A stretch of DNA of 64,000 nt from Macrostomum lignano (lineage: Eukaryota). The stretch lies in contig NIVC01000671.1 of NCBI GenBank assembly GCA_002269645.1, forward strand, positions 372,001-436,000, in the 5' to 3' direction. The translations under genes and the position numbers were made by a program. Below, one piece after another: positions 8,654-61,959 of this stretch; the first letter of the stretch is position 1, and each line of letters starts with the position of its first letter. Below the pieces are notes generated by a model. The model ran no database searches. It had not been told where the DNA came from and saw only the letters and a program-made list of their open reading frames with translations.

Positions 8654-8869
8654 TTTTCAGTCTGATTTAGGTATTCCAACAATTTTCTTATTAATCAGAA
8701 ATAATATTTTAATAATCAAGACACACCTGTGAGACGGGTGAACACCTACTGAACTGCCCAAGTTTGTTTATCATTTCTCAGTATTCGATTTTTAACCTGC
8801 AGAACGCAGAGCCGCGATCAGGAGAAATGCTTCTAGCAAAAAGCAGAGCGTCGGGCAAAGTGGCGGTCA

Positions 8870-9052
8870 CTAGGACGCCATCCAGTTGTTATTGCTGCTG
8901 CGGGATTGCATCTGGCGCATCTGATGCTGCTGCTGCTGCTGGGGGGCTCTGGCTGAGGATTTCCTGCGATTGCGGCCCCGACGCCGCCGAAAGAAGCAGC
9001 ACTTGGCGTCTGACGCCGATACATCGTCGTCAAAGTCGATGTCGCCGAACCT

Positions 9053-9090
<38 letters not shown>

Positions 9091-9154
9091 GCACTGATGG
9101 CCCGCCTGCGCCACCGTCGGACGGCTGCTGATCGAAGGTCATCGAAGCGGCAAC
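8870..9154 (-). CDS. CSNK1G: CK1 gamma last coding exon (palmitoylation motif)
   Basis: ccctcag|GTTGCC...; poly-Gly then [18 protein letters not shown], matching the CK1 gamma C-terminal Cys/basic motif. Confidence 0.88.
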
Positions 9155-12100
9155 CTGAGGGCAGTGATGATGATGATGACATGCCGGGTCAAAATAGCGA
9201 TATGAAATATGGCGAGTTTTATACAGGGCGAGATTAATCAGGCAAGCTAAATTACATGATTGAACTGATGGAGTTTTGATCGGACTGCTTAAAGATAATA
9301 GAAAAATTCCAAAGCAATACAATTTTTTAGGCTAAAAATTCGAGCTTTCCAACAACAGATACAGAAAGTCAGACACCCAGAAAGAGAGTCAGACATCTCA
9401 GAGTTAGACAGCCAGACATGCAGACAAAGAGAGTCAGACATGCAGACAAAGAGTCAGTCAGTTATCCAGACAAAGAATCAGAGAGTCAGATATTCAGACA
9501 AAGAGTCAGATATCCAGACAAAGAGTCAGATATCTAGACAAAGAGTCAGATATCCAGACAAAGAGTCAGATATCTAGACAAAGAGTCAGATATCCAGACA
9601 AAGAGTCAGATATGCAGACAAAGAGTCAGATATTCAGACAAAGAGTCAGATATTCAGACAAAGAGTCAGATATCCAGACACAGAGTCAGACATGCAGACA
9701 AAGAGAGTCAGATATTCAGACAAAGAGTCAGATATTCAGACAAAGAGTCAGATATTCAGACAAAGAGTCAGATATTCAGACAAAGAGTCAGATATTCAGA
9801 CAAAGAGTCAGATATTCAGACAAAGAGTCAGATATCCAGACACAGAGTCAGACATGCAGACAAAGAGAGTCAGATATTCAGACAAAGAGTCAGATATTCA
9901 GACAAAGAGTCAGATATTCAGACAAAGAGTCAGATATTCAGACAAAGAGTCAGATATTCAGACAAAGAGTCAGATATTCAGACAAAGAGTCAGGTATCCA
10001 GACAAAGAGTCAGATATTCAGACAAAGAGTCAGGTATCCAGACAAAGAGTCAGATATCCAGACAAAGAGTCAGATATGCAGACAAAGAGTCAGATATTCA
10101 GACAAAGAGTCAGATATTCAGACAAAGAGTCAGATATTCAGACAAAGAGTCAGATATTCAGACAAAGAGTCAGATATTCAGACAAAGAGTCAGATATTCA
10201 GACAAAGAGTCAGATATTCAGACAAAGAGTCAGGTATCCAGACAAAGAGTCAGATATCCAGACAAAGAGTCAGATATGCAGACAAAGAGTCAGATATTCA
10301 GACAAAGAGTCAGATATTCAGACAAAGAGTCAGATATCCAGACACAGAGTCAGACATGCAGACAAAGAGAGTCAGATATTCAGACAAAGAGTCAGATATT
10401 CAGACAAAGAGTCAGATATTCAGACAAAGAGTCAGATATTCAGACAAAGAGTCAGATATTCAGACAAAGAGTCAGATATTCAGACAAAGAGTCAGATATT
10501 CAGACACAGAGTCAGACATGCAGACAAAGAGAGTCAGATATTCAGACAAAGAGTCAGATATTCAGACAAAGAGTCAGATATTCAGACAAAGAGTCAGATA
10601 TTCAGACAAAGAGTCAGATATTCAGACAAAGAGTCAGATATTCAGACAAAGAGTCAGATATTCAGACAAAGAGTCAGATATTCAGACAAAGAGTCAGATA
10701 TCCAGACACAGAGTCAGACATGCAGACAAAGAGAGTCAGATATTCAGACAAAGAGTCAGATATTCAGACAAAGAGTCAGATATGCAGACAAAGAGTCAGA
10801 TATTCAGACAAAGAGTCAGATATTCAGACAAAGAGTCAGATATTCAGACAAAGAGTCAGATATTCAGACAAAGAGTCAGATATTCAGACAAAGAGTCAGA
10901 TATTCAGACAAAGAGTCAGATATGCAGACAAAGAGTCAGATATTCAGACAAAGAGTCAGATATTCAGACAAAGAGTCAGATATGCAGACAAAGAGTCAGG
11001 TATCTAGACAGAGAGTTAGATTACGCCAACACGGATGAATAATAATGAACCTAGCGCAAAATCACGAATCAGTGACAAGTTAATGGACAAAAAATGATTG
11101 AACCAATCACCAATCACCAGAAATGAGTTAATCAAGATCCTGACAAGCATATAGTGCGAAGATGTACACAAAACAGATGGATGAAATTATTTTTTTTTGC
11201 GCTTTCAATTTGCCACCAGCTGATACGCATTAGTATTTCTGCACCAAAGTTAATTAAAAAAAACAAACTGCAAGCAGAAAGATGTTAGATGGGGGCCGTA
11301 GCCCAGCGGTCTGGCGTGGCGCTCTGGTGTGCCAGCGGCCCAGGCTCGATTCCAAGTGCAGTCGCATTAATTTGGGGCTAAATTGGAATTACGGCTTGGC
11401 TCTGCTCGTTACGTCCTTGAGGGCCAACCCCCAAGGCACAGTGAAGTGTGCATGTCTAACAATAAAGGAATGTAGCCCAGTGGTCAGAGCGTCCGACTCA
11501 CGACTTGAAGGTCGGGGGTTCGATGCCCGATTCGACTCGAAACAATTTGTGTCCTTGAGCAAGACACTCAACTCTGAATTGCTTCAGTTCACCCAGCTGT
11601 AAAATGGGTGCCAGCATTAGCTGGGATAGTTCAGGGTGTGTGTGGCGACCCCCCAGTCCTTGGACTGAACAGCCGTACGCAGCCTTCAGATGCGCCGCGC
11701 AATAGCTGCGGCTGAGCTGTCGGTTGCACATCTGGCCCAATTAGGGCAGATGTAATCAATTATTATTATTATTATTATTACTAACGATAAATAAATTAGG
11801 TCCGCTGTACACTCCTGTGTGACTGTGTGTGCCTGCTCAGGGGAGTCGGTGGAATGGGCAGTAATGCCTCTCGCCGGTTGTGTGACAATGTCTGTACACA
11901 GACCCCCTATCTTTAAGTCTTGTCTTGGTTAATCAAGAGCGGAAAGTGACCACACTGAGATTAGACAGACCAAAGCCATGGCTGCAGTTGCAGAAGTTTG
12001 TTAAAGCAGATGCACGCAAGAAATAGACAAAAAGAGGGTGGGCAGAGACCAAGAGGTCACAGTTAATAATATTACACGCTGCATACATCCAGTAGACTTC

Positions 12101-18100: not shown

Positions 18101-19012
18101 TCCAGTTGATTCTGAACCTAAATCCAGTTGATTCTGAACCTAAATCCAGTTGGTTCTGAACCTATCTGTAAATCCAGCAGGTTCTGAACCAAAATCCAGT
18201 TGATTCTGAACCTAAATCCAGTTGGTTCTAAACCTATCTGTAAATCCATTTGGTTCTGAACCTAAATCCAACAGGTTCTGAACCTAAATTCAACTGGTTC
18301 TGAACCTAAATCCAGCAGGTTCTGAACCTAAATCCAGCGGGTTCTGAACCTAAATTCAACTGGTTCTGAACCTAAATCCAGCTGGTTCTGAACCTAAATT
18401 CAACTGGTTCTGATCCTAAATCCAGCGGGTTCTGAACCTAAATCCAGCTGGTTCTGAACCTAAATCCAGCGGGTTCTAAACCTAAATCCAGCGTATTCTA
18501 AATGTGAAAACAATTTAGATTCTAAACCCAAAACCAGAGTGCATCATCAATCAGCATATTCCTAAACAAGCGGACAGGCGCCTCACCAGCTGTATGGCAA
18601 TCATGCAGACAGTCTTGAGCGTGAACCGCCTACTGCAAGTATCGAACAGATCCTCTAGAGACGGTCCCAGCAGCTCCAGCACCAGCGCATTGTACTTGTG
18701 AGTCGGGCCAAAGTAAAACACCTGCGGCAGGCCTTCGGGGGAGCCGAGCTCCTTATAGAACCTGTACTCAAGGTGCAGCTGAGGCGCCCGCGACTTCAGC
18801 GGCTCCAGCTTCACAGCCACGTGCTCGTTATTGTAAAGATTCTTGCCCAGTCGGAGTTCGCCAAAATTTCCGCTACCAATTTTTTTGCCAACTTTAAAAT
18901 TCGGCCCAACCATTAAGAAGGCGGACTCGGAGCGACAGGGCAGGTAGGAGCTGTTGGCTCCGCCGCCTGCGCCGCCAGAAGCTGGGAGGCGCGGATTGCC
19001 TCCACTGTTCAT
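8870..19012 (-). CDS. CSNK1G: casein kinase 1 gamma (gilgamesh/CSNK1G-like), spliced, about 482 aa
   Basis: Minus-strand exons 19012-18587, 17434-17200, 16384-16214, 13912-13758, 13585-13514, 12255-12151 and 9154-8870 all join in phase. CK1 motifs [57 protein letters not shown], plus the gamma-specific C-terminal [10 protein letters not shown]. Confidence 0.95.
9360..11022. repeat. 20-bp minisatellite (CAGACAAAGAGTCAGATATT)
   Basis: About 80 units with periodic 22-bp variants. Confidence 0.95.
11292..11925 (+). mobile_element. tRNA-headed SINE-like element (outer) interrupted by a second SINE
   Basis: A-box TAGCCCAGCGG and B-box-like GGCTCGATTCC at about 11298-11352. The sequence resumes after the inner SINE. 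The 3' boundary is approximate. Confidence 0.5.
11467..11780 (+). mobile_element. tRNA-derived SINE with CORE-like domain and (TTA)n tail
   Basis: A-box TAGCCCAGTGG, B-box GGTTCGATGCC; TGTGTCCTTGAGCAAGACACTCAACTCT...CAGCTGTAAAATGGG resembles the MIR/CORE block; (TTA)n tail; flanked by CTAACAATAAA / CTAACGATAAA (11-bp TSD, 1 mismatch). Confidence 0.8.
12151..12255 (-). CDS. CSNK1G: CK1 gamma probable Q-rich tail exon
   Basis: gaattag|CCGGCA...CCCAGT|gtcagt; 105 nt, phase 0; [35 protein letters not shown]. Confidence 0.65.
12411..12795. repeat. 35/37-bp minisatellite (CCCATGGGGTGTCAGGAGTCAGGATACAGCAGAAT)
   Basis: About 10-11 tandem units. Confidence 0.92.
13514..13585 (-). CDS. CSNK1G: CK1 gamma small tail exon
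   Basis: ttcgcag|GGCACG...CCCAAG|gtgaga; 72 nt, phase 0; [24 protein letters not shown]. Confidence 0.75.
13758..13912 (-). CDS. CSNK1G: CK1 gamma exon (end of kinase domain)
   Basis: cctcgcag|AGGAGC...CGAACG|gtgagt; [21 protein letters not shown]...WDFDW. Confidence 0.93.
13921..16130. repeat. complex 29-33-bp GGACCGGAAGTG minisatellite with higher-order duplications
   Basis: Fills intron 13913-16213; identical ORF translations recur at a 532-bp offset. Confidence 0.95.
16214..16384 (-). CDS. CSNK1G: CK1 gamma exon ([12 protein letters not shown]...)
   Basis: ctgttccag|AACAGT...TTTCCAG|gtgcgt. Confidence 0.95.
16780..17160. repeat. degenerate relative of the CCGGAAGT minisatellite
   Basis: Repeated (GG/GA)ACCGGAAGT(A/G)GG units in the neighbouring intron. 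Confidence 0.75.
17200..17434 (-). CDS. CSNK1G: CK1 gamma exon (catalytic loop, DFG)
   Basis: cacgcag|ATCAGC...GGCAAAG|gtgagt. Confidence 0.95.
17458..18500. repeat. 22-bp minisatellite (TTCTGAACCTAAATCCAGCGGG)
   Basis: About 42 units, interrupted by a MITE. Confidence 0.95.
17646..17757. mobile_element. 112-bp MITE with 12-bp perfect TIR inserted in a minisatellite
   Basis: ACAGGGACAACT (17646-17657) ... AGTTGTCCCTGT (17746-17757), with CTGAAC duplicated on both sides. Confidence 0.8.
18587..19012 (-). CDS. CSNK1G: CK1 gamma first coding exon (kinase N-lobe)
   Basis: ATG at 19012 (acceptor-like tttacctgcag| 26 nt upstream, at 19038); donor CAGCTG|gtgagg. Confidence 0.92.
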
Positions 19013-20419
19013 AGGCGGAGCTCTGCTGGCAATGGGTTCTGCAGGTAAAAATATTCAGGTAAGCTATTTTATTCCAACTATTATAACTATGCAATGAAAT
19101 AGTAAACCTAGCCAGCCAGTAACTGGGTTAATTAGTGTAACCAAAAACAGATTATCCATTGTTTTTACATTAAGTAGTACTATGACTTTTAGACTGGGTA
19201 GAGTCACTTTTTAGTTGTGCAAAAGCTTTTTGGAGATGTACATGTACTTTATGTCAATCTTTATATAGAAAGCTGGTGATTACATTATAACTATGTGATG
19301 TGAGCACAAACTAACATGTACTACTAATGTAATATGCATATACAAGTGAACAAAAAGCACAAGTTTTTTGTCCCAAGTTTACTTCAATGGCAGCATATAC
19401 AATGTACTACACAATAAATTTTATGTATGCCAACATATCATGACATGGGGCAAGTGCATACCAACTATATCTATATGCCAACACTTACAGCTCCAATATC
19501 AATGCATACCTATTTTTTTAAATATATGCTATATGATCTTAACTAGATTATAACAATTAACAAAAATCAAGTAAGCAAATTCTAGCCTTGTTTTTGTTAT
19601 ATATAATTTCTTATATATTAAACTTGTATTTTGCAAAGTCTTAAAATATGCATTCTAATAAAATTTATATTATAAAAAATTATATATACATATTTATTAA
19701 AAGTTAAATCTAGCATTTATATAATAAAAAGAGTGGGTCACTACATTATATATACTTAACCTTTGCTACCTAGCCAATAAATGATAATAATAGACAAAAG
19801 GATCCATTATACCAAGTTGTTTTGTATGTACACTGAAATAGAACATTTTGTCTTCAGACTTTTCATCTAGGTCATTTTTTCCATAGGCATAGAAAATATT
19901 TTATTTAGATATTGTACCCATTAGGTCATTTTGACCAAGACAAAATGTCTAATTTATAGGATAATGAAGGTTAATGACAGGATTATGTACATAGCTTAAA
20001 TCATGTGAATATAGGACTTATCAAATTTTTATCAAACAGACAAATATAATAATAGTCAATATGAATGGACCCAGTGATAGACAAAATAGGCTAGAATCTA
20101 GATGATAAAAGAACCAATATTAATTAGTAAATTTTAGGAAAAGGCATATATAACTTCAGTACCATTGTCATCAATATTATTAGCTACTATGGCTGAGAAG
20201 TCTACTGCTATTAATAATAGCAAATACATTGATAGGAGCCAATGCCACAACTGAGCCAAGACTTGTAAAACAATTGAAGTCAATGGCAATCAAATGGAAT
20301 GCCTTTGGAGATATATGCAAAGCAAAGTAGCCTGCCTTAAGAAAATAATCATTGGTGCCACATGATCCAGAGGCAAGAATACAACTCTTAAATGCCGCCA
20401 TGACCTGATCATTTGTTTG

Positions 20420-21070
20420 GGGCATGCTGCAGCTGGCAGATGCCTTTGTCTAGCCCTAGGTGATATCTTAATGGAGGAACTGCCAGAAGCGGCCATCCTG
20501 ACTAACAACCAGGCCACCATCCAAGCCATCCAAGCTGATTGCACCACTATGCTCATACTAACAGCCTCCTAGAAACACTCAAGAATCTCATCTGATGTGC
20601 TATCTAGGTCATAGCCATTACTATCCAGTGGATCCCTGGGCATGTGGGCATTAGTGGAAATAAGCTGGTCAACCTGGAGGCCAAGTGGGATATGTGCCTG
20701 CCTCAACAGCACATCCCCCTTGCACTCACTACATCCAAGAACCTACTGCGCAAGTCTGTTGGGTACCAGCCTATATTGGAGGGCAGGAAGTCTTAGTCTT
20801 GTAGGTCCATACCAGCCACTACCCAGTATCAGTCTACTACAAAAAGTGCATTGGGACAACCAATGATGCCACCTGCAGGCTATGCAAGGATGAAGTTGAT
20901 CAATTTTACCTGCTGACTTGTCTTGCTTTAGAAATGACTTGCCTCTTAATTGGAGTCCAACATCTCAATGACCTGGCCAATGGTCCCTTAGTGGTACAGC
21001 TCCTAGGTGCCCTTGACTGGGTCCCCATCTAATGGAGCCACACTCCACAAAAAACAACAGCATCAGCTTC
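20420..21070 (+). pseudogene. decayed 3' fragment of an RNase-H-bearing non-LTR retrotransposon (I-group-like)
   Basis: Frameshifted motifs AILTNNQATIQAI (cf. TDSQ), QWIPGHVGISGNKLVNLEAK (cf. WxPxHxGIxGNExAD) and CRLCKDEVDQFYLLTC (cf. CCHC knuckle), followed by a CAA-rich end. Confidence 0.75.
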
Positions 21071-22921
21071 CTTGGTACTACTAACCATGATACCAACTCA
21101 AGAACTACCATTGAGGATACTAAGGCTAGCTCAGATGCAACTGCAGAAATGCAACCAATGCAGAAACTGACTATGATGTTTTAGCCTAGAATAGATTAGC
21201 TAGAAGTGACATTAGAGTTAGGCACAGATTTTTTCATTATCCTAGAAAGAATCCCAAGACATTAATATAAAAAAAGTATAAAAATATTCATTAAAATGCT
21301 AAAATGTTAGCAAGTTAAGATGGTCTATCTCTAGAGTCTAGATAGATTAACTTATACCATGTAGATATACATATGTAGGGGGTCCAGTGAGAAAATTTTT
21401 TTTTCAAAATCCAAATTTTTAATCATGCCATGTTGTAGTTTTAGATGTTATGAGTGAAATGACACTTGACTTTTGAAAATTGATCAAGTAATAAAAAAGT
21501 TATGAAGTTTTTTGTTTCAAAAAAATGGTGTTTTTTTCCCATCTCAAATACACTGAAAACTGTGCCATTTTTGGGCAAAAAAGCATGTTTTTTACAGTAA
21601 AATGTCTGTAACTTTTTTATTTCATAACCGATTTTTGTGTTTTAGGTGTTATTTTGTAGATTTTTGTTACCATAACATTTTCTAATATTTTTGTACATAT
21701 ATACCATTCTATAAATGCAGATATCTAGGGATTAAGACAAAAAAATGAAGCAAAAAAATGTGTAGGAGTACCATTCTTTGGCTTTGTCATGGTATACTTA
21801 CCATTTACCTTATTTTTACTATTGTCATATCAAAGCAATACTTATATACTATAATTGGTAAGATTCTTATCTTCCTACTGTTAGTAGTATGCAAATGATC
21901 GACCATTATTTTAATGAAAATGGGTCTTCCAAAGTACCACTCTAGATGTCAATGGTGTCTAAAAATCTATGTAGCTCATGCCAATCTTAACCTGTTGAAA
22001 ATGATAATGTGACAAGAGTCGCTAAAAAGTAATTGCAAACAACTCTTTAACTCTTGGCGAAAAAGTCGTCCAAGAATTGTTATGCTGACGTTTAACTTTC
22101 TACTAACTCAGTAGGCTAGTTAGAGTGCAATTAGAGTTCAATAGGCTAACATTGTGTCTATTATTGTCTAAGAAACCCATGTACTCACTTTTGCAGCTTT
22201 TATACAGCGACAGGGTTTGTCCCAACTGTCACTGGTAGAAGGCCAACGTTGGACATTCCTTTAACTGGACTATGGTTTGTACGGTGCAGGGAAGCGTGTT
22301 GCGGAGAAGATTTGTGACTTCTATTTGCTACCTAAATACATTGTCGTTTTGTTAGCAATTATTGTAGGTGTCTGATCTGTTGTAATTTAACGTTTGGTGC
22401 GTTTTAAAATGTACTTGTAGACTGTAGGTAAATATGTATATTACAGGAAAGTGAAGAGTGTAGTAAGGTTTGAATTAAGTGTGATGTATAAGATATAGCA
22501 TAAACCTCAACTCCAGCTTCTGAATGCCTGCACTGTTTGCTTCTGTATGTAAAAGACTTTTTATTTCAAGAGAAATTAAATGCAAACTCAGAAAAGAGCT
22601 GTTTGCTTCAAAATGTTTTATACCTACAGTTAGCCAGTTTGGCAACTGCCAGCACTCGATGTGCTTTTTAATCCTGATCGATTCTACTTTTTTTCGTGCG
22701 TTGTTCATTTTATCCCATGAAGGCTTCGTTGCATGTGCACATGTGATTCCGGCTGCTTGATTCGGCTGCACCAGTTGAACTAGGGAGGTGAGAGAAGTTT
22801 CTCAGCTAGATTGCAAATAGTTGATAAATAATGGTCGGGTACAGCCTCAATGGTGGGAGATATATGTAATCAGGACAGCAATACTACTGCACAGCTGCAT
22901 TTTGCAGCTATATAGGTACCC

Positions 22922-23419
22922 ATGGATCGACATAATGAGCAAGAGGAAGAGGACGTGATGGAGGACGAGGCACCCGAGGTTCTGATACCTTATCTGGAGG
23001 ACCTGCGGGAAGAGTTTGGGGAGAAACAGCGGCTGGTAATTGAGCAGCTGCAGGTGAACATGCATCAGCAGCAGCAGTTACTGCAGCCGCATAATGTACA
23101 TAACCCCAGCGTGCAGCAGCAGCAAGACAGGCTTGCTGCATTAGACCGGCTGTTCGGGGAGCAACAGCGGCTGTTGGAGCGACAGCAACAGCTACTAGAG
23201 TACCAGCAAATGGGCGTGCGGAGGCAGCAGGAGGTGTTGGAGCTTCAAAGGCAGCGACAGGCTGCAGCAGAAGAAGAGGATCAAGAGGAAGAAGATGATG
23301 ATGAACTGGGCGAAGATTTTTTTAGACTGCCCCTGCTCCCGCATCGTCGCAGTCCTCCACCGTCTCCGCCCCCCTCCCCACCCCCTCCTGCACCAGTACG
23401 CATGCCGCAGCAGGGTTAA
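22922..23419 (+). CDS. transposon cargo ORF, 165 aa, acidic/Q-rich coiled coil with Pro-rich end
   Basis: Clean ATG-TAA ORF, GC-rich against its flanks, preceded by acceptor-like ttttgcag; internal repeat FGEKQRL/FGEQQRL; no recognised family. Confidence 0.6.
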   Translation: MDRHNEQEEEDVMEDEAPEVLIPYLEDLREEFGEKQRLVIEQLQVNMHQQQQLLQPHNVHNPSVQQQQDRLAALDRLFGEQQRLLERQQQLLEYQQMGVRRQQEVLELQRQRQAAAEEEDQEEEDDDELGEDFFRLPLLPHRRSPPPSPPPSPPPPAPVRMPQQG

Positions 23420-23690
23420 CTAATTACTTGTATGTACATTTATAACACAATTCGTATGTTCGCGTCTGTGTCGTGTAGTTTTTGTGGTAAAATAAAATTC
23501 TACTGCATGTACATGTAATAGTGCGCATGTGTAGATGCAGGGTCTGTTTGGGTTGTTCCCAGCTATAGTATCCTAATTGAGGTCCTGCTAAGGTTGGTAT
23601 GGTATATGTCGTGTAGCTGTATGTAGCGATGTTGATGCTATTGTAAGTGTTTGTCACCTGCATATTTGACTTACAGCCTGGAAAATTAAA

Positions 23691-23912
23691 ATGAGTGGTG
23701 TCATAAATTGGTCTGTTCTGTTGGACAATGTCCTAACAGCCTCAGCTTTAACCAGCAGGATTCCTGGTTACTACGAGGACGAGGTGAACAACCGGGTCCT
23801 CACCCTTGCCCAGCCTTCTTCAAACAACGAAGAGCCAGCTCCAAATCCCATTAACTGGTCTGCCTTGCTAGACAGCGTACTTCAAACATCATGTACTCCA
23901 CATGAGGAATAA
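23691..23912 (+). CDS. transposon cargo micro-ORF, 73 aa, with duplicated INWSxLLDxVL motif
   Basis: Acceptor-like gacttacag| at 23677, then AAAATG; the two motif copies differ mostly at synonymous positions. Confidence 0.6.
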   Translation: MSGVINWSVLLDNVLTASALTSRIPGYYEDEVNNRVLTLAQPSSNNEEPAPNPINWSALLDSVLQTSCTPHEE

Positions 23913-24547
23913 CTGCTACCTCCGTTCGAGTGTATATACATGTATGTATGTGACGCCGGTGGACGTCTGGCTGATGTGGAAGTGTTTGTACCAAAGGACC
24001 ACTAGAATTATGTAGATTTAACGTGAATCAAAGCCTTAACAACGTATGAGTACATACGTACATGTAAACGAGTAAGCCTTCAAAAATGTGCAACAATTAC
24101 GTGTTACCTGATTCAACTAAGTTCTAGTGGTCTTTGGTTCCCACTTTAAGATTGCAAGTAATATACAGCTGTGTACGCACATTTCTGGACTGCATGTGGA
24201 TTTTTTAAGTCTCATGTATTGTCGTCTTAATTTTATTTTTGTACCCGTTTGAGTCAATATAGCTAGTAGTTGTTGTACGAACACTGGCAGTTTAGAGTAG
24301 GAGTCTATTTATTTATCACAAAAAAAACTTGTCCGAAAATGTCTGCAGCGCTATTATGGCTGACAGGGAGGAATTCACACTTTAATACATGTAAGTAGTA
24401 TGTTACTAAATCATAAAATTTCATGTTTGAAAAGGCCCCAATTCTGCAATAGACTCTACCTTTACAGTTTACCTGCATCATTTGATTCATAGAAATTGTT
24501 CACTGTAACCACTCTTCAGTGCAATAGAGCAATACAAATTCAGTGCA

Positions 24548-25261
24548 ATGACTGAGCCAGTTACATGTACCAACGGTGTGATGCTTGCCACCCTGGAGGC
24601 ATCCATCAAGGCCAAGTTACCCAGCTCCGAGGTGCGGAAAGCCTTGGCAGACTGTCTTAGTCTGCCTGCTGAAACTGAAGCAGGTGTGCTAAGTAACTTG
24701 TTTCGAGCAGCAACGAAAGTGAAGGCAAAGGCGCGGGAACTGGAGAGGTCGAAAGTGCGCGAGGAAGCTGCTGGCAAGCAGAGTGCCTGGTCCATCTACA
24801 TGGACAAAGCGTTCGCCTTTCCTGCAGTGGTACCAGTCTCAGCTGCAAATGTGCCACAACCGACTCCTAGCACGCCAACCCGAACTTCTTCTGCTACTGC
24901 TGCTGCCCGGTCCCCTGAAGAGGAGCGGGGCGTCGATGTAGGCCTTCGAGAAGCTGTACGCGATCTTCGGGCCCAGCTGGAACGGTCAGAAGCGACTGTA
25001 CGAAAGCTGCACGATGAGCTAGCCAAGCGTCCACAGCGGAAGGTGTGGTTGCAGCGTGTCCGGCGTCTGCAAGATCGGCTGTACGTAGTTCGACGGCAAT
25101 TGAGCAGCAAAAGCCGGCAGCTGGTGGAGACGAGTGAGGCCAAGCTGGCCAAGAAACGTCGCCAGGCTGCTCGAGCGGAAGCTGCTGCTGAGCGCAGAAA
25201 TGCCTCGGTACGTGCCGAGCTGCGCGAGATGCACGAAATGCTGGCTACCTCGAACAGTCGC
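24548..25261 (+). CDS. transposase exon 1 (N-terminal coiled coil)
   Basis: ATG at 24548; donor AGTCGC|gtaagt. Confidence 0.75.
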
Positions 25262-28200
25262 GTAAGTTGCATGAGTAACAGATTGTTGTTCACTTGTCAT
25301 TACGTCGTATATGGTGCATTGGATATGGTGCAAGGGTGGGGTATCAGATTGGGAATGACAGAGATTGGGAAGCATTGTTCTTCAAACGTACAGTACTCTA
25401 AACACCAAACAGATCCAACAGCTCCAGGCCACATTCCAAGCGGGCCAGATGCGTGTACTGCAGACGCGGGAGCCGAGAGGTGCTGGTGGAAAGCAGTACA
25501 CCAACCGCGTCATCGCCACCTGCACGAATCTGGTGCTGAAGTGCCACGTCCCTGTTCGAGCCGTCCGCGACACTATTGTCACTGTCGCCGAGCAGCTCTG
25601 TGAGTTGCAGATGGGCGACAAGCTGCCCTCGGACTCGCTTATCAGCTCGGTCACGTACGGCGTTGGCAACAGCCTCGCCAAGGCGAAGGCCATGGAGAGC
25701 ATCCTGCTCGCATCAGAGACGGACAAACCGTTGACGCTGATGACCGATGCTACGAGCAAACGGGGCGACCATTGGAGTGTTCTGCAGGTAGAAATGAGAA
25801 AAGACACGGGGTATTCCAGTTAGTCGCGTGTGTATGGGCAGATTCAACTTTATAATTATAAAGTAAACGTTCCAGAAAACATAGAATGTTAGAATAGTAC
25901 TACAAACCGTTTTCCTTTTACACGTACAGGCCGATACTGGTGACGGCCAGGTCGCACTGACGCTCCGACAGGTCGAGGGCGGCACGGCGCAGATGTACGC
26001 CCGCGAGATGGACACGTCCATCGACCAGCTTGTGGACGCATTTTGTGACATTGTCAAGCCGGTGCGAGACGATGAACAGGCTCGACGGGAGATGAAGCGC
26101 AGCGTTTTTGTGCGGGTAAACTTTTTAATGACGGACCGCCATGTCGTAAACAAATGTCTGCTGCAGCTGCTTAACGAGATGCGTGCGACGTTGACGTCCC
26201 AGGACGGTTTGGCTCATCCGGAGGTGACCGCACTGTTCTGTGGCATGCACGTCATCGTTAACCTGGCTGCTGCGGTGGAGAAAGGCTTGAGTGACTGGGA
26301 ACGCTGCGTATCGGCCGCACCGCTTGGTGCAGCAGCTGTACCGGGGTATAAAACCGCCAAGGCAGAGTCAGGTAAGATTCTGAAGGCAATTTATAGTAAA
26401 AAATTGCTCAGTATTTCACCTTTATTACTTGTAAACAGGCAGTCAGCGGCTCATCAGAACGGTCAGCAAGGCCTTCCATCGCCTGGGGAACGAGCAGTGT
26501 GGCGTCGCCGTTCCTTTCGAGGTCTATTTGCAGTCGCGCGGCGCAAAGCCCTTCGAGATGGAGGACTTCAGAGGCAACCGTGCGTACGTCCTCTTTCCCA
26601 ATGGCGGCCACGTGTTTTCCCAGCGAGAGCTGCTCACAGCCTTCCTGGACGAGTACCCGTGCAGCAATCGCCTCCTCGTAGCCGTGAAGAACGACTTGGC
26701 GTCCAACGTCCTCCTCACTGGCTGTCGCGCGTTGGGTGTCCTTGACTTCCTGGTCATCCGGCCCCTGTGGTTGCTTCTCCGGAGCCCTAGGTCAAAAGTC
26801 AGCCTCATAGACATGAACGGCCGCTATGAGCAATTGTGTGAGTGGCTCAAGGAGGTGGTCTCCACAGATACTATCCGCTTCCCAGAGGACCTCAGCGGGC
26901 CATTCCCTGACCTTGCCAATGCCGTGCTGGAGCCGCAGGATGCCAAGGCCATGTGGGCAACCCTCAGCTCCGACGCCTCGGAGCTGGACAATGACCTTCT
27001 TGGCCAGGCTCTGCAGGTGAGGCAACAACAAAAACAGTACAACCCACTGCGTGTCACTGACTGAAAGAAAAACTGTGACCTACTAACACCCATCCTCCCC
27101 ACCATTTGTACAGGTCGCTGCGGCGCACATGTTGGTCCTCGTCCGCCGTGAGGTGGTTGATCACCTGCCAGGTGGTGCGCTGCGCAATCTGGCAGACGAC
27201 AATTCCCGTTTGGCTGCCGCTGCTCCCAAGGACAATGTCGCGTGTGAGGTGTCTTTTGCAGTACTGGACAGCACTGTAAGGTCGAAGCCCAACATGCGGC
27301 CCCTGGCTCGCGAGACGTTCGTGCTCTTTAAACAGAACGGGACGAGCGAGTGGCTTCGCCAGAAGTCACTGGAAGAGCAGGACGCAATGCTGTCGCGAGC
27401 ACGGCACATCGCGAAGAAGGTGGAGATGCAGGCCAAGGCGGATGCCAGGGCTGTTCGAGCTGCACAGCAGCACCAGCAGCAGGCTCGAATCGCCCAGGAT
27501 CAGCACAGAAAGATCGCCAGGGAGAGTTCGCTCCGCGACCTGATCAACGCGGTGCAGGACTACGGTGGCCTGTGGCTCACAGTTTCCGAGATGCAGAACA
27601 GGCTTCAGGACCTGCCTGAGCGGCTGCATGAGCCAGCCGTGCTCTCCCAACTGCGACTGCACAAAGCAATGAGTAATATATATTTATTACTGCCTGCGCT
27701 CATACATACCCCACTCTTAGGATTAATTGTCATTACTGAATGCGCATTCCCTACTAACACCCTCCCCAAACAGAGCCAACGATCCCCAATGACATGGCAG
27801 GCTGCCTGAACCTCACCGATTCTGGCGCAAAAAGGTCAGTGCAGCTTCTCACTGACAACCTGCAAGAATTTCTGGCCCATCTACAGAGGGAAAAGATAGC
27901 TGCCACAGCCAAGGAGGATGACGCGCAGGCTGTATCGATGCGATCTGCCAATGAGCGTGCTGATCGTGTTAAGGCAGCAATTGCAAAGAAGCTGGAGCCT
28001 GCGCGAACAGCCTCATCTGTAGCTGCCGGATCGCGTGGGCGTGGGACGAGGCGTGGTCGTGGCCGAGGTAGAGGCAGAGGCAGCGCAGGCAATGGAGCTC
28101 AGGCTCAGGGCACCAGCGAAGGCGGACATGGAGGACGGGGACGTGGGCGTGGGCGTGCGCGTGGTCGCGGGCGTGCAGGTATACATCCAACTACCAAGCG

Positions 28201-28522
28201 GCCTCACGACTCGACCTCCGAGTCCGAGCGCGAGTCGGATGCCGAGCCCGAGGCCCAACCCAGGCAGGCACCATCGCTTCAGAACTTACCAGTCCTCGAG
28301 TGTCGACGCATTGAAATGCGATTTGGCTATGCTGATGGTTCTGAGCAATGGGAGGAAGGCTACGTTCAGCGTCGACTGCCATGCGCCAGCCATGATGTAC
28401 TTTCATGGAACTTCGAGGTCACCTTCGATGAGACTGGCCCAAATGAAGTTTTTATCTACAACCTGTACAAGGACTACTTAGACAATGACCTCCATGTGCT
28501 AGACGATGAAGACATTGAGTAA
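24548..28522 (+). CDS. spliced DDE transposase (hAT-like, about 1138 aa) with C-terminal RG tract and Spindlin-like Tudor domain
   Basis: Exons 24548-25261, 25413-25787, 25930-26371, 26439-27016, 27114-27672 and 27774-28522 give 3417 nt in frame without internal stops. Candidate catalytic residues LMTDATSK (D), LMTDRHVVN (D), FCGMH (CxxH), KDNVACEVSFA (E). An upstream exon is possible. Confidence 0.85.
25413..25787 (+). CDS. transposase exon 2 (first Asp)
   Basis: caaacag|ATCCAA...CTGCAG|gtagaa. Confidence 0.85.
25930..26371 (+). CDS. transposase exon 3 (second Asp, CxxH)
   Basis: cgtacag|GCCGAT...GAGTCAG|gtaaga. Confidence 0.88.
26439..27016 (+). CDS. transposase exon 4 (insertion domain)
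   Basis: gtaaacag|GCAGTC...CTGCAG|gtgagg. Confidence 0.85.
27114..27672 (+). CDS. transposase exon 5 (catalytic Glu region)
   Basis: TACTAAC branch point, tgtacag|GTCGCT...GCAATGA|gtaata. Confidence 0.8.
27774..28522 (+). CDS. transposase exon 6 (RG-rich tract and Spindlin-like domain)
   Basis: TACTAAC branch point, caaacag|AGCCAA; phase matches exon 5; TAA at 28520-28522. Confidence 0.78.
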
Positions 28523-30534
28523 CATACTGTTCCGTAGGCTTAAATTTTACCAGGCGCGGATCCAGAAAACTTTGAATGGGGATGTAGAGTACAGGTACAT
28601 GCAGTATATGTACTTCATGTATATGTATATGTACATAATAATGTACTACCCATAGAGAAAGTGAGAAAAGCAAAATCTCTGGGAAGGCGCGCCCTTTGTA
28701 CTACCACCCAAAATCCAATACTGAGTTTAACTTCTAAGATGTACTGTACAAACAATGTATATACATGTAGGTTGCCCTACCAGTAACTGTTTTTTAAACT
28801 TCCTTCATTATTAATAAGTTATACAGTTTGTAAAGTCATATCAGAAAGGTCAATTAGCATTGACAAGTTGAACAGACAAATGCCAAAGATGGCTTGTTGG
28901 GATAGCTTTGCTAGGGTCCATTTCCAGCATTTCCACAGTGGAAGCCTTCCTTTTGACCTCCATCTTTCCATGTATAGAAATATACATATGTACAGTACCA
29001 ATAATAGCAGTCATCTGAAACAAATAATGTGTTAACATAATTTAGTCATTACATTTTACCTCAACAAACATCATATCATAGGTGCAGGAACCACAGCATA
29101 TATTAATATGTGCATCTCTTCTCACTATACCCATTCTCCGTATTTTCATTCAACCAAGCCCTATATTTACTAGATATAGTTAATTATACAATGGATTGGT
29201 GAGATGTGCATAAAGGATGAAGTATATCGTGAGTCCATCTATCCTCTTTTGAAAAAAATTACATGTGTGACTGATTTGTGAAGCATACAGCCCCTCAATG
29301 TACATTTTTCCTATCTCCATAGTGTATTTGCCTGTACTGCTGTGCCAAATATGCTTCATAACTTTGGTGCGGCAAAAGTTATCAGGATGTGCCTTTAGGA
29401 CAAAGAGTTTGGCCTGTTTTGCTATCATTTTATCAAAGAAACTAACTGGCCATTCTTTTGAGCTTCAAAAATTTCCCGATTTTTATGTCCCTTATGGGGA
29501 TTTGCATGCATTTTGGCGATTTCCATTAGGCATACTGCGGCAAGAGTTACACTCATCCTGTCTAGCCTAAAAGTTTTATTTTGTCATTAAAAGTAAGTAG
29601 CAAAAAGAATTAGGGTGGCCGCTCTTTCCATTCAAAAGTTATGGCCATTTTAAATTTTACATGTACATGTATATGTACATGTACATATTTTTGAACAAAA
29701 AAAGTTCACTTAAAATGACCTCCAGGAAGTTACCTACACTCAGTATGCAATCATTCTTAGTAGTTATGCACTCATTTACTAAAAAACGAATCCTCCCGAT
29801 CCCATATTTTCAAGCAAATTCGGCACAGTTTTGAAAATGTACGAAAATGTACACGATGTTTGACAGGCTGTATCCTTGTAATCGTATGTCCTAAACGTGT
29901 AAACTATATGTCGTTTGAAACATCTGTTTGCCTTCTTTTCAATGAATATAAGAACGTGGTCATATCTCAAATATTTAAAAAGTTACAGACGTTTAAAGAA
30001 GACCACTTTTTTACCGTTTTTCGGTTTTGCACATGCTAAAAATAGGCTCGCTGGACACCCTAACATATGCAAAGCTAATATTAAGACTAATGGTTTAGTA
30101 GTATTTACTAAAATTATGAATTGCAGCTTGGCAATGAGCTATGCAGTTATACAGTATACATTGCACAATCTATATTAAGCCAGTCTAATATATCATTAGA
30201 TGCTATTTATAGATTAAAGTTTGAGGAATAGACAATTAGGCCTATCATAATGTATCTACAATGCATGAAAAATATCAATCAATTAAAAAGTCATTCAGTT
30301 TTTTTATTTGAATTTTTAAAAAAATTAAATTAAATTAAGTTTTTAAGAGTAACACAAAATCTGGAAGTTCAGCCGCAATCATATATAAAAAAGAAACATT
30401 TTTTGATACATATCAGCCACACTTTAAGATCAAGTTTATTCTTATTAAAAATAAATTTAAATTTTTTTAACTAAAACCCTGAAAAAATTCAAGGTGGAAA
30501 AATTTCTGTTTGCTAAAAAATTTCAAAAAAAAAT

Positions 30535-43900: not shown

Positions 43901-44692
43901 ATGAAGTGAGATTCCAGATCATCTCAATGGAAGATGGAGTGAGATTCCAGATCATCTCAATGGAAGATGCAGTGAAATTCCAGCTGATGCTGCTGATCTC
44001 AATTCCAGCTCATTACAGAGCTACTCAATCGATTCACGCTAACAAGATGGCTAAGCACATCCTGCAGCTGTAAACGTTAAAAAAATTGAAATTTAACGCA
44101 AATTCAAAGGCAGCAAAGCCTCACCAGACAGCAGAAACAGGCCAATGATGAACAGAATAGAGACCCAGAGCGGTATGATAGGCCGGGTTACGTACACCCT
44201 CAGCTCAGGCCCGTAGTACACCCAGGCTTCGGTACTATCGCCCCGTCTAGCCTTGGCGCACAGATACAGGTGGGAGGTAACTGACGAGCTGACTGGCACG
44301 GAGACCGTGCTCACAGCAATATTACCATCCTTTGCAACAATAGGAAATTTTATAGCCATCTTGCTGTCTTGACAGTCGGCCAGGGAGCCATTGAGCTCGC
44401 GCTCCGTGAAGCCGAGCAGCGACAAGTTGAATAGGTCTCGGCCGAATAGCTGGAATTCGTAGATCTTGCCAACCAGAATCTCCTGGTTCGCCCCCTGCCA
44501 GCCCGGCTTGTTGGATCCGGCCAGCGGTCGGACAGTCAGGCCGAACACAATTGGTTGGGCCAGGCTGGCCGAGTCAACAGTCTGAGCATTGGTTGGTGGC
44601 AGCGCCAGCAGAACAGCTAGTGTTGGGATTAGCAAGCAGCAGGCGGACTGCAGAGACCAATGTTGGATGCCTAAACTAACGTCGGCACCCAT
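34421..44692 (-). CDS. CNNM: CNNM-family metal (Mg2+) transporter (DUF21-CBS pair-CNBH), spliced, about 817 aa
   Basis: Minus-strand exons 44692-44125, 41832-41420, 40478-39938, 38569-38435, 38359-38269, 37368-37211 and 34968-34421 join in phase (2454 nt). Motifs [77 protein letters not shown]. Start codon and last exon end are less certain. Confidence 0.93.
35075..35495. repeat. about 31-bp minisatellite (GGGAATTCTCGGATGGGTATTAGTACCGTAG)
   Basis: About 13 units. Confidence 0.9.
36285..36975. repeat. 31-bp minisatellite (GGGGAATTATTGGATGGGCATTAGGATTCTA)
   Basis: About 22 units; related to the 35075 array. Confidence 0.92.
37211..37368 (-). CDS. CNNM: CNNM exon (CNBH domain)
   Basis: atttctcag|CTACGG...CTTACTG|gttcgt; [17 protein letters not shown]...[10 protein letters not shown]. 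Confidence 0.88.
37500..38115. repeat. 16/18-bp minisatellite (TCTCATGTTCATAATC)
   Basis: More than 30 units. Confidence 0.92.
38269..38359 (-). CDS. CNNM: CNNM small exon
   Basis: catctgcag|TGCATA...TTCAT|gtgagt; phase 1 to 2, matching both neighbours. Confidence 0.78.
38435..38569 (-). CDS. CNNM: CNNM exon
   Basis: aatttcag|AGAATC...GCTATGC|gtgagt; 135 nt; [13 protein letters not shown]. Confidence 0.82.
38700..39845. repeat. 15/16-bp purine-rich minisatellite (GGGGAGAAGAGGATC)
   Basis: About 70 units; source of the GEKRI/RRGSG/GEEDR pseudo-ORFs. Confidence 0.95.
39938..40478 (-). CDS. CNNM: CNNM exon (CBS pair)
   Basis: ctccccag|GTGTTC...ATTCCCG|gtactc. Confidence 0.93.
40530..41350. 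repeat. 35/39-bp minisatellite (GTGATCCCAATGGGATATTTTCTATTAAAGCACCT)
   Basis: About 21 units. Confidence 0.92.
41420..41832 (-). CDS. CNNM: CNNM exon (DUF21)
   Basis: accatag|GCCTAT...CGTCAG|gtgtgt. Confidence 0.93.
41841..42445. repeat. 20-bp minisatellite (AGTCAGGGAACAGATCAGTG)
   Basis: About 30 units abutting the CNNM acceptor. Confidence 0.93.
42915..43985. repeat. 33-bp minisatellite (ATTCCAGATCATCTCAATGGAAGATGCAGTGAG)
   Basis: About 32 units; 11-codon period explains the long open frames on both strands. Confidence 0.95.
44125..44692 (-). CDS. CNNM: CNNM exon 1 (signal peptide, ectodomain, TM1)
   Basis: Hydrophobic N-terminus; [20 protein letters not shown]|gtgagg. Confidence 0.85.
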
Positions 44693-44960
44693 TAAATTGC
44701 ATGGGAAAGTTTAATTAAAAGTGAAGTAGTATCACCAATATGCACTAAGAGCCATGCCATGTTTGAGAAGGCTTTCAAACATAAAAAAGTGTCATGACAA
44801 ACATAAAAGCATCATTTCAAAAATGAAAAAAGCATTATGTACATTCATTGGGGAATTGCTAGGATGTCAAGGCCTAGAGGTTAGAAGCTACACATAGTTT
44901 ATTTAAAAAGTATATTACATACTTTACTTCCTCTTCAATAGTCACAAATGGTCACTAATC

Positions 44961-58860: not shown

Positions 58861-59076
58861 GAAACTTAAATAAGCAAAACAATGTCTGAATATTATTGTG
58901 CAAGTAATGCATCGAATATGTTGGCTTATTTTTCACTTGGTTCTTTAAACTTTCGGAAATTTAGGCTAAAAACAGTTTCTTATGTCCTTTTCTATCGTAT
59001 GATTTACCTTACAACTGAGATACATGAGAAGCAACAAAAAATTCCCAAAAATTTGCATGGACCCATCAGCCCGGCT

Positions 59077-59936
59077 ATGCCAGTAGCTGGCAGCGATCAA
59101 AAGCTGGCGCCAACTCCGCCACCATCCTCAGCCCAGTCCCAGTCTCCTCCATCGTCAACAACAGCAATAACAACAACATCGTCTTCCTCGGTTGCATCAT
59201 CTGCGGCGGCCTCCATTGCCGCAGCCTCCGCGGCCGCTGCAGCCAAGCCGCTGGAACAAGCCAAGGCCAGTTCGCCAATCCCGGCAGCCACGCCGCCGCC
59301 TCTGTTGCCTAGCAACGCAACGCGGGAAGCCCGCAGCGGCAGTTGCAGCCATCAAGTTAGCAAGAATCGCGAGCTGTTAGCTTTGCCAGCGCTGAAGGAT
59401 GCCGCTAACGAGCAGGAACGGGAGGCTCTGCTGTTGCAGAAACTGCGCCAGTGCTGCGTGGTCTTCGACTTCGCCCAGGACCCGCTTTCCGACCTCAAGT
59501 ACAAGGAGGTGAAGCGCCTGGCCCTCCAAGAGCTTGTAGAATTCGTCACGGTTGCCCAGGGCGCCCTGACCGAGCCTGTGTACACCGACGCCGTCGCCAT
59601 GTTTGCCGCCAACGTGTTCCGCACTCTGCCGCCGCCGTCCAATCCTCTCGGCGCGGAATTCGATCCGGAAGAGGACGAGCCCAATCTGGAGGCGGCCTGG
59701 CCGCATCTGCACCTGGTGTGCGAGTTCTTTCTGCGTTTCTTAGAATCGCCCGACTTTCAAGCGTCGCTGGCTAAGCGGTGCATCGATCACGCCTTCGTGC
59801 TGCAGCTGTTGGACATGTTCGACAGCGAGGATCCGAGGGAGCGCGATTTTCTTAAAACTATTCTGCACAGAATCTACGGCAAGTTTGTGGGCTTGCGCGG
59901 CCTGATTCGCAAGCATATTAATAATATTTTCTACAG
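59077..59936 (+). CDS. PPP2R5: PP2A B56 exon
   Basis: Low-complexity N-terminus then HEAT-like core; TTCTACAG|gtaagt; 5' boundary uncertain. Confidence 0.88.
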
Positions 59937-61959
59937 GTAAGTCATTCTTTGTAAATTAGGTCTGCTTATTTTCTTGTAAGGCTTTTTGAAATTCATTTTT
60001 AATGCTCACTTGTAGTTTACTGATATAATATATTGTCAATGCAATTTATTTCTTTATTGCCTCCTACATCCCCTCCCTTCATTCTTCCCTCCCTTCATTC
60101 TTCCCTTCCTTCATTCCCTCCCTTCATTCTTCCCTCCCTTCATTCTTCCCTTCATTCTTCCCTTCCTTCATTCCCTCCCTTCATTCTTCCCTCCCTTCAT
60201 TCTTCCTTCTCTTCATTCTTCCCTCCCTTCATTCTTCCCTCCCCTCATTCTTCTCTTCATTCCTTCATTCTTACCTTCATTCCTTCATTCCCTCCCTTCA
60301 TTCTTCCCTCCCTTCATTCTTCCCTCCCTTCATTCTTCTCTTCATTCCTTCATTCTTACCTTCATTCCTTCATTCCCTCCCTTCATTCTTCCCTTCCTTC
60401 CTTCATTCCCTCCTTTCATTCTTCCCTTCATTCCTTCATTCCCTCCCTTCATTCCCTCCATTCTTCCCTTCATTCCCTTTTTTCCATTCATTCATTCTCC
60501 CCTTATTTCTTCCCTTCAATCTCCTACCCGAATCGCAGGTTCATCTACGAAACCGAGCGCCACAACGGCATCGCCGAGCTGCTGGAGATTCTGGGCAGCA
60601 TCATCAACGGTTTCGCCTTGCCGCTCAAAGAGGAGCACAAAGTGTTCCTGCTGCGCGTCCTGCTGCCGCTGCACAAAGTGAAATCGCTGAGCGTCTATCA
60701 CCCGCAGCTGGCCTACTGCGTGGTGCAGTTCCTAGAGAAGGACCACACCCTCACCCAGCCTGTGCTGCTTGGCCTGCTCAAATTCTGGCCAAAAGTTCAC
60801 TCGCCCAAAGAGGTAATGTTTCTCAACGAGCTCGAAGAGATCTTGGACGTTATCGAGCCGGCCGAGTTCCAGAAAGTCATCCAGCCGCTTTTCGGCCAGC
60901 TGTCCAAGTGCGTCAGCTCGCCTCACTTTCAGGTGAGTTAAATTGTCCTCACGACTGAACTATAATTCAGAATATCCTATTCGACATCCTTACTGTTCCG
61001 AACTAATAAATCCCATGTGCCATTGTCCCGTTCCAAAAATCCCTTTACTGAAACTCAAATATCCCATTAGTCACCGTCCTACTCCTGGCATCCAAAAGAT
61101 GCCATTCAGCATTATCCCAACTGGAATTATCAATATCCCATTCAGCATTATCCCAACTGAAATAATCATATCCCATTCCAGAATTATCCCAACGGAAATT
61201 ATCAAGATCCCATTCCAGAATTATCCCTAGAGAACTTATCAAGATCCCATTTAGCATTATCCCAATGGGAGTTATCAAGATCCCATTCAGCATTATCCCA
61301 ATGAGATTTATCAGGATGCCATTCAGCATTATTCCAATGGGATTTATCAAGATGCCATTCAGCATTATCCCAATGGGATTTATCAAGATCCCATTCAGCA
61401 TTATCCAATGGGATTTATCAAGATCCCATTCAGCATTATCCCAATGGGAGTTATCAAGATCCCATTCAGCATTATCCAATGGGATTTATCAAGATGCCAT
61501 TCAGCATTATCCCAATGGGAGTTATCAAGATCCCATTCAGCATTATCCCAATGGAATCTATCAAGATCCCATCCGGCATTATCCCAAACCCAGGTGGCCG
61601 AGCGCGCCCTGTACTTCTGGAACAACGAGTACGTGCTGTCGCTGATGTCGGAGAACGTGCGCGAAGTGCTGCCTATAGTGTTCCCGGCTCTGTACCAGAC
61701 CAAGCAGCATTGGAACAAGACAATTCATGGACTGATTTACAATGCGCTCAAGCTGCTGATGGAGATGAACCAGCGCCTGTTCGACGAGTGCACCAATCGG
61801 TACAAAGAGGAACGGCAGCGCGAGGCACTGGAAGCGGCCAGGAGAGAGCAGGCCTGGGCAGCCATTAACAGCAAGGCGATGCAGAATCCTCTGTTTGATA
61901 ATTTCTCCGGACCCGCTGACGGTCAACTGGACGGCATGGGAGACAATGGGAGCGCCTGA
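59077..61959 (+). CDS. PPP2R5: PP2A 56-kDa regulatory subunit B'/B56 (gamma/delta-like), spliced, about 539 aa
   Basis: Exons 59077(or 59084)-59936, 60539-60932 and 61594-61959 join in phase. Motifs [91 protein letters not shown]. Confidence 0.95.
60060..60520. repeat. CCTTCATTCTTCCCT-type pyrimidine minisatellite
   Basis: Fills PP2A intron 59937-60538. Confidence 0.9.
60539..60932 (+). CDS. PPP2R5: PP2A B56 exon
   Basis: aatcgcag|GTTCAT...TTTCAG|gtgagt. Confidence 0.95.
61095..61590. repeat. 35/36-bp minisatellite (CATTCAGCATTATCCCAATGGGATTTATCAAGATCC)
   Basis: About 14 units grading into the acceptor at 61593. Confidence 0.9.
61594..61959 (+). CDS. PPP2R5: PP2A B56 last exon
   Basis: aaacccag|GTGGCC; [13 protein letters not shown]...; TGA at 61957-61959. 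Confidence 0.9.

Follow-up and report, generated by a model that had tools for sequence, protein, structure and literature searches.

The locus examined here raises the question of why a transposon would encode a 73-aa acidic micro-protein (9 D/E against 2 K/R) that holds the same 11-residue motif twice, and what that motif might dock on. The protein is encoded by ORF B, 73 codons plus a stop at 23691-23912 on the plus strand of the 64,000-nucleotide stretch of Macrostomum lignano DNA that we analysed (the window, to which all coordinates refer).

The doubled motif of ORF B

Motif copy 1, INWSVLLDNVL (23703-23735, +), and motif copy 2, INWSALLDSVL (23850-23882, +), have 22 of 33 nucleotides in common. 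Three codons are identical, six differ synonymously and two replace the residue, 7 of the 11 nucleotide differences fall on third codon positions, and the likeness drops away beyond the motif boundaries. We confirmed the ORF, the motif coordinates and the six synonymous and two replacement codons reported in the preliminary description of this DNA. When a duplicated 33-mer was given 11 differences under four mutation models, one of them with CpG decay, at least 9 of the 11 residues were kept in 2-4 of 8000 neutral simulations, a frequency that is not a genome-wide p-value, as the motif pair was chosen post hoc. A six-frame scan of 18.5-33.7 kb of the window found the ORF B pair to be the sole pair of such kind. 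The standalone CACTA copy L064 encodes INWSALLDDVL and INWSALLDSVL (10 of 11 residues at 23 of 33 nucleotides), and since standalone copies have INWSALLDDVL as their first motif, the V/A difference in the window's copy 1 is a recent private change.

A low-confidence AlphaFold2 model of ORF B (mean pLDDT 58, pTM 0.22), made from a 6-row alignment, predicts helices at residues 7-22 and 56-67 and a loose linker between them. The core W-S-x-L-L-D-x-V places hydrophobic residues at 0, +3, +4 and +7 of a two-turn predicted helix. The docking motif proposed earlier, a hydrophobic helix present twice, therefore stands as to its two copies and tentatively as to their helicity.

A splice-acceptor-like site at 23665-23676 (+) lies 14 nt 5′ of the ORF B start and 13 nt in standalone copies, and so is not a frame-preserving coding junction; it is a candidate for a 5′ UTR intron or a leader trans-splicing site. 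We considered whether ORF B is a coding exon that is joined to ORF A by splicing, and rejected this on the 1-nt difference between lineages, with no good in-phase donor seen. AG acceptor-like sites occur a few bases 5′ of each ORF start (22900-22921, 23665-23690, 24340-24355 and 24535-24547). Leader trans-splicing is reported for about 30% of M. lignano genes (PMC8629364), and since acceptor-like sites precede the ORF starts, polycistronic expression of the element's ORFs is possible. In contigs of the 8 of 24 runs guessed to be RNA, none of the joints listed is a predicted intron and none of the loose ends listed is leader-like. Two X3 contigs beginning at 23678 were considered and are accounted for by the 1-nt difference in standalone copies.

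A CACTA-like segment nested in a hAT-like carrier

ORF B lies inside an 8687-bp DNA transposon (21376-30062, +) with ends TAGGG(G/T)GTCCAG and a 7-bp target duplication, ACATATG. The transposase of this carrier (24548-28522, +) is predicted to be spliced from six GT-AG exons into an open 1138-aa frame, in which we read by eye the pattern D350, D432, C467xxH470 and E748. The six exons matched no Pfam family and exon 4 had no PDB match; one relative of the transposase is labelled DUF659-containing in UniRef. Among five two-ended elements the 7-bp duplication is perfect in three (window, L089, L097), imperfect in L088 and absent from L059. We call the carrier hAT-like only, because its duplication is not the 8 bp of hAT elements and Pfam is silent. 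The label hATw, which we take to denote a 7-bp group, was not applied to the carrier, and our literature search found no definition of such a group.

Four sister carriers (L088, L089, L097 and L105) have the same ends without the segment that holds ORF A and ORF B, and the joint 21990>24403 is present in contigs of two runs. ORF B as original cargo of the hAT-like element was rejected on these sisters and on the existence of the segment in a separate CACTA-like element. The composite of carrier and segment is found at 10 further loci. L059 (G000:C1072) is a second young composite copy at another site, 99.3% identical, with transposase and ORFs open and no clean target duplication. A 967-bp internal transposase deletion (window 25553-26519) marks one composite lineage (L060-L062, L072), and its joint is also seen in runs X1, X2 and X5.

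The nested segment (21991-24371, +) is the 3′-truncated left end of a CACTA/EnSpm-like element. It begins with a decayed terminal repeat at 21991, has a short internal deletion before 22057, and retains about 2.4 kb with ORF A, ORF B and the first transposase codons. ORF A (22922-23419, +), an accessory ORF of 165 aa, is rich in Gln and Glu, resembles a coiled coil and ends in a Pro-rich tail, and the CACTA transposase survives as a first-exon stump (MADR..., 24356-24371, +) cut off at 24371. The stretch 22057-24371 occurs without the carrier at seven near-complete and several partial loci, which run on both sides into another element, 10,540 bp long at C228. Since the segment starts at a decayed CACTA end, stops in the first transposase codons and exists without the carrier, these arrangements indicate that a CACTA-like element inserted into the carrier and lost its 3′ part, and that the composite then multiplied. 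That ORF B is transposon cargo, as first described, is borne out; its CACTA origin had been missed.

This donor resembles the CACTA/EnSpm (CMC) group in its 3-bp target duplications (ATA at C228 and TCT at C111, 2 of 2 checked), its short, matching terminal inverted repeats, its CxxC-bearing predicted transposase and its second large gene. It differs in its CCCG...CGGG ends, in the extra ORFs A and B, and in having sister families with SAE2-domain genes. Plant CACTA elements are defined by termini that start CACTA or CACTG, and the donor termini do not. By eye its transposase carries DAPQRA and GCDKC, which we take to be CACTA-type transposase motifs. The sister L133 matched DUF1258 (E 5.8e-6) and DUF4218 (E 0.023), both below the cut-off, and Pfam returned no transposase family for the donor transposase pieces or two other sisters. 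The donor's second gene has weak B-box and BEN matches (BEN-like E 0.044). Near the right end of the standalone copies L064 (oriented 8860-9700), L069 and L063 is a common remnant, presumably mariner-like.

Copies and selection

A protein search of the genome gave 28 matches at 22 places. M. lignano is reported as a hidden polyploid (PMC10468722), so these copies are not all independent. We aligned 19 copies and left out four further fragments; ORF B is open in 7 of the 19, and ORF A and ORF B are both open in 5. Between the standalone CACTA and hAT-borne lineages dN/dS is 0.10-0.26 in the motif codons and 0.7-1.5 in the rest of ORF B, which leaves the linker unconstrained. These lineages are recent, and under CpG-aware expectations the synonymous excess in their motif codons was not significant (P 0.05-0.27). 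Of twelve branch tests, the one on the CACTA branch stands out alone, with 3 motif changes that are synonymous and none that replaces a residue (P 0.02). The earlier description had named a disrupted ORF in most copies with no dN/dS signal as a result that would count against it; ORF B is indeed broken in 12 of the 19 and recent lineages give no significant dN/dS, which partly bears against it. Selection on the motif is old and clear, and we are highly confident that the motif is real and selected.

Whether the window's own hAT-borne copy still works is an evenly balanced matter. It may be an unused passenger, picked up by the hAT-like carrier through nesting after the motif had been selected in CACTA ancestors, a reading that we think could go either way and that is independent of, and compatible with, any mechanism proposed for the motif. 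The four sister carriers without the segment fit it, as do one hAT-borne lineage with a stop at the W of motif 2, another with stops in ORF A, and the window copy's own branch, with 0 synonymous and 1 replacement change and thus no signal of selection. That branch is short, however (24 of 856 non-coding sites), and hence of low power. Also against a passenger, ORF A and ORF B are open in each of the two young composite copies; between the standalone CACTA and window lineages no indel falls in the 222 nt of ORF B, as opposed to 20 in about 960 nt of flank; and purifying selection acts on ORF A, with P 0.001-0.004 if the decayed lineage is excluded and 0.04-0.10 if it is included.

The motif in other CACTA families

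From 154 matches we fetched 36 loci around sister transposases, 9.9 kb each; all motif counts given here refer to fetched loci only. The consensus is [IVPM][ND][WF]Sx[LI][LFM]D. One family (L108, transposase 57% identical) has a stand-alone 93-aa ORF with IDWSALLDDVI beside an ORF A homolog; the order of these two ORFs in L108 (3029-4002) is opposite to that in L064. In the stretches examined neither the ORF B nor the L108 element has an SAE2 domain, and ORF B itself has no Pfam match. Other CACTA families carry the motif at the N-terminus of 240-310-aa proteins encoded downstream of the transposase, whereas ORF B lies upstream. These longer proteins are CtIP/Sae2-like, and we refer to them as mini-CtIPs.

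CACTA-borne CtIP/Sae2-like genes gave 50 matches in the genome (among them L148, L156, L159, L164, L169, L174, L178, L175 and L186), from which we examined 41 loci and grouped them into families by eye. In 7 of the 12 transposon-type families 0-13 residues separate the motif from the first Met, and all 7 are downstream of a CACTA-type transposase; two families have a CxxC-coil start and three have neither. In those two (L175, L186) the protein starts DHWSH, followed by CxxC and a short coiled-coil-like stretch in place of the motif. A CACTA-type transposase lies upstream in 9 of 10 loci with long context. In L136 (oriented 9451) and L186 a weak motif match, IDWTDILGSIL, runs across the end of the SAE2-like ORF in a different frame and lacks a Met.

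A matrix built from the 7 N-termini only scores the window motifs 21.0 and 25.7, against 17.6 for the best of 583,984 control windows, and in leave-one-family-out matrices each motif scores above all 583,984; the controls include stop-containing windows, and the motifs were first found by likeness to ORF B, so that the test is partly circular. Across eight families the motif residues hold while the codons vary freely, the flanks are unrelated, and residues 26-110 have no blastp similarity. This fixed peptide with free codons, together with the neutral simulations, upholds the earlier claim of selection on the peptide and not on the DNA. The top PDB match of the motif profile, IDWSRILDSV in the insulin receptor (E 0.05-0.4), lies in an extracellular folded domain and was treated as chance.

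The motif is thus common to ORF B and to CACTA-borne CtIP/Sae2-like proteins, which the preliminary description had not seen, and this points to DNA-break repair rather than chromatin silencing; no direct support for anti-silencing emerged.

The SAE2-like domain and the host-like CtIP gene

When the C-terminal domains were aligned, Pfam SAE2 matched 10 of 10 at E<=1 (best E 5.1e-7, with L178 above the cut-off), one of these rows being the host-like gene; whole-protein Pfam scans of three mini-CtIPs were weak or blank. The CxxC and the HR are invariant, and an R precedes the HR in 9 of 10. The domain profile retrieves 390 proteins, named CtIP/RBBP8 included, and the ESM Atlas search retrieves SAE2 clusters. 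No homolog was found for the L178 SAE2 region, none for the SAE2 alignment in metagenome and viral contigs, and no CtIP C-terminal match in the PDB. A Pfam scan of the genome gave nothing for CtIP_N and one transposon-linked locus for SAE2.

On G000:C176, C3324 and C2929 (L204, L206 and L207; P0156) there is a spliced, host-like CtIP gene whose product starts with a coiled coil and which has no CACTA transposase in its vicinity. In the domain tree the transposon copies group with this gene (100/98, with the bootstrap not fully settled), and it nests among them (96/97), so the tree is compatible with capture in either direction. We searched for a host 5′ exon with the motif and none scored well at the three host loci.

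At the position of the CDK site of CtIP, which rat P0028 has as T-P, L174, L175, L178 and L186 have D, whereas four transposon families and the host-like gene have A, with a one-residue gap in the alignment; the D may be phosphomimetic. Two SAE2 proteins, P0148 from Orchesella dallaii (TDWNTLFESLL) and P0090 from Ignelater luminosus, have motif-like N-termini and no T-P site. Among 80,817 windows from 149 proteins the P0148 stretch, at residue 7, scores highest, and P0090 is outside the top 15. ESM Atlas match 3 for L148 is a cluster of SAE2 proteins of ~190 aa; 12 members have a phylum on record, Nucleocytoviricota is the most frequent taxon, and the cluster thus hints at short CtIPs carried by viruses.

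Comparison with the CtIP tetramerisation helix

CtIP is described as a dimer of dimers formed through a short N-terminal helix (PDB 4D2H) in which F20, L23, W24 and L27 take positions 0, +3, +4 and +7 (PMC7895427). The motif has the same hydrophobic positions, in a short predicted N-terminal helix, in proteins that end in SAE2, as do CtIP, Ctp1 and Sae2. A stapled copy of the CtIP helix, SP18-28, is reported to bind, aggregate and inactivate CtIP and to impair repair (PMC7895427, PMC8205527), a precedent for a motif-only peptide. The transposon motif differs in its W at 0, its conserved D at +5 and the lack of a coiled coil after it; ORF B and the motif-bearing mini-CtIPs, as read from their sequences, have acidic or repeat linkers instead of the dimeric coiled coil. 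Unlike SP18-28, ORF B is natural, doubled and transposon-encoded.

Direct comparisons gave this likeness little beyond spacing. The motif matrix gave the tetramer helix the highest rank in none of 34 cellular CtIPs; the helix reached the top 1% in 5 of them and the top 5% in 20, and a register shifted by four did equally well (8 in the top 1%). With a reverse matrix, neither P0001 nor any of 8 transposon ORFs had the motif as its best stretch in that register, and a motif HMM found nothing significant among 150 SAE2 proteins. The host gene's candidate helix, VSDLLSRRI, scores -2.4 in a gene model without its start. A complex modelled from ORF B and two host CtIP-like N-termini (P0156 residues 8-72) scored 0.02 and was counted neither for nor against binding. 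By the profile comparisons the likeness to the cellular CtIP helix is no better than helical periodicity, and no sequence homology was detected; the spacing 0/+3/+4/+7 fits many helical motifs.

Proposed function and alternatives

Our best explanation, which we hold tentatively and at somewhat less than an even chance, is that ORF B is a bivalent, stand-alone version of the docking helix found in mini-CtIPs, and that its targets are CtIP-type assemblies at the breaks which excision leaves. The motif would be an N-capped helix with hydrophobic residues at W0, +3, +4, +7 and +8, and in mini-CtIPs it would replace the N-terminal tetramerisation helix and coiled coil of CtIP; we infer a docking or assembly role from its spacing and its position in SAE2-bearing proteins, both of which match those of the CtIP helix. 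With no Sae2 domain, and with two such helices joined by a linker that is acidic and flexible, ORF B would mimic the helices of one CtIP dimer and might cross-link or cap host CtIP or the mini-CtIPs, so that end resection at the donor site would be shifted, for or against. The rationale is that breaks left by excision, those of CACTA elements included, need processing. In hAT excision, hairpin ends are formed, and their repair in yeast is reported to involve Mre11/Sae2, although most of the hairpin opening is credited to Pso2 (PMC3299998). The least secure step is the identity of the partner; that it is CtIP-related is plausible and falls a little short of an even call. In a wider scenario, which we regard as possible and on the doubtful side, CACTA-like elements captured CtIP, split it into mini-CtIPs and docking peptides and choose their own break repair, and a hAT-like element later took the cassette.

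Other partners have to be weighed against this. The motif might dock on the element's own machinery, whether the CACTA transposase, the coiled coil of ORF A or the B-box/BEN-like protein. The mini-CtIP would then be anchored to the transposition complex, with ORF B as a bridge or a competitor at that site; we consider this rather doubtful. It would account for cellular CtIPs without the exact motif, for the near confinement of the motif to CACTA-type elements, and for the joint travel of ORF A and the motif ORF, in swapped order, in two distant families. The motif is, however, near-identical across transposases that are ~40-57% identical, as would be expected of a conserved host partner, and the CACTA transposase is deleted in the window. 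The chromatin partner suggested in the preliminary description, in which an acidic W/L-rich helix brings in or sequesters a cofactor of transcription or chromatin, as in anti-silencing, seems unlikely. An acidic protein with WxxL[LF]D does resemble activation motifs such as the WxxLF of Gcn4 and the LSDLLD of E-proteins, and the weakly BEN-like protein of the donor would suit such a role, but ORF B has no DNA-binding part, and where we found the motif fused to a domain, that domain was SAE2, which serves in repair.

A turnover or localisation tag, either of the Atg8-interacting WxxL type or a degron, is improbable. The LIR core is an acidic or polar residue followed by WxxL, and the N-terminal motif matches it; yet the conserved +4, +5, +7 and +8 positions and the predicted helicity exceed that core, and it is hard to see what a doubled tag without cargo would be for. 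A chance likeness, or a repeat at the DNA level without a coding role, would agree with the finding that whole ORF B has no homolog in Pfam, the protein collection or the ESM Atlas; we strongly disfavour it and think it very improbable in view of the neutral simulations, the score matrix and the same peptide written in different codons in eight families.

Cut-and-paste transposons depend on host repair of the donor break, and sister-chromatid repair of that break is thought to raise copy number. If the docking of ORF B on CtIP-type assemblies is true, elements with their own CtIP derivatives and motif-only peptides would steer the choice of donor-break repair directly. ORF B would also be a small testable peptide, a natural parallel to the designed CtIP inhibitor, in a flatworm with transgenesis. 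The CACTA-borne CtIP-like genes stand as a finding even if the partner of ORF B is a different one.

DNA transposons are known to carry accessory proteins: maize Spm TnpA and Arabidopsis VANDAL VANC bind element DNA and counter silencing. ORFs A and B are likewise extra ORFs beside a transposase that may tune host responses, but ORF B, at 73 aa, is a motif-only peptide whose link is to a repair factor that elements have captured. MicroProteins are dominant regulators that consist of an interaction domain only, and ORF B, too, would be a small protein with only the interaction part of a larger multi-domain relative. It differs in being a doubled 11-residue motif with no folded domain, encoded by a mobile element, and in having a candidate target only. 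In titles and abstract openings, a scope outside which lie most subscription journals, repeat databases and supplementary repeat annotations, the last of which may already include these elements, we found no description of CtIP/SAE2 genes in CACTA/EnSpm elements, and nothing like these genes under BEN with EnSpm or viral Sae2.

Surroundings of the transposon

The whole window is rich in minisatellites (91 Tandem Repeats Finder rows), and many of its long ORFs are repeat artefacts. A remnant at 20608-21032 (+), with no Pfam match, is presumably an RNase H-like retroelement, and 44093-44710 (-), likewise without a Pfam match, encodes what we take to be a CNNM-like membrane protein. A kinase host exon lies at 18551-19054 (-; Pkinase E 7e-5), which we assume to resemble casein kinase I gamma, and host exons of a PP2A B56 gene lie at 58870-61959 (+; Pfam E 2.8e-33).
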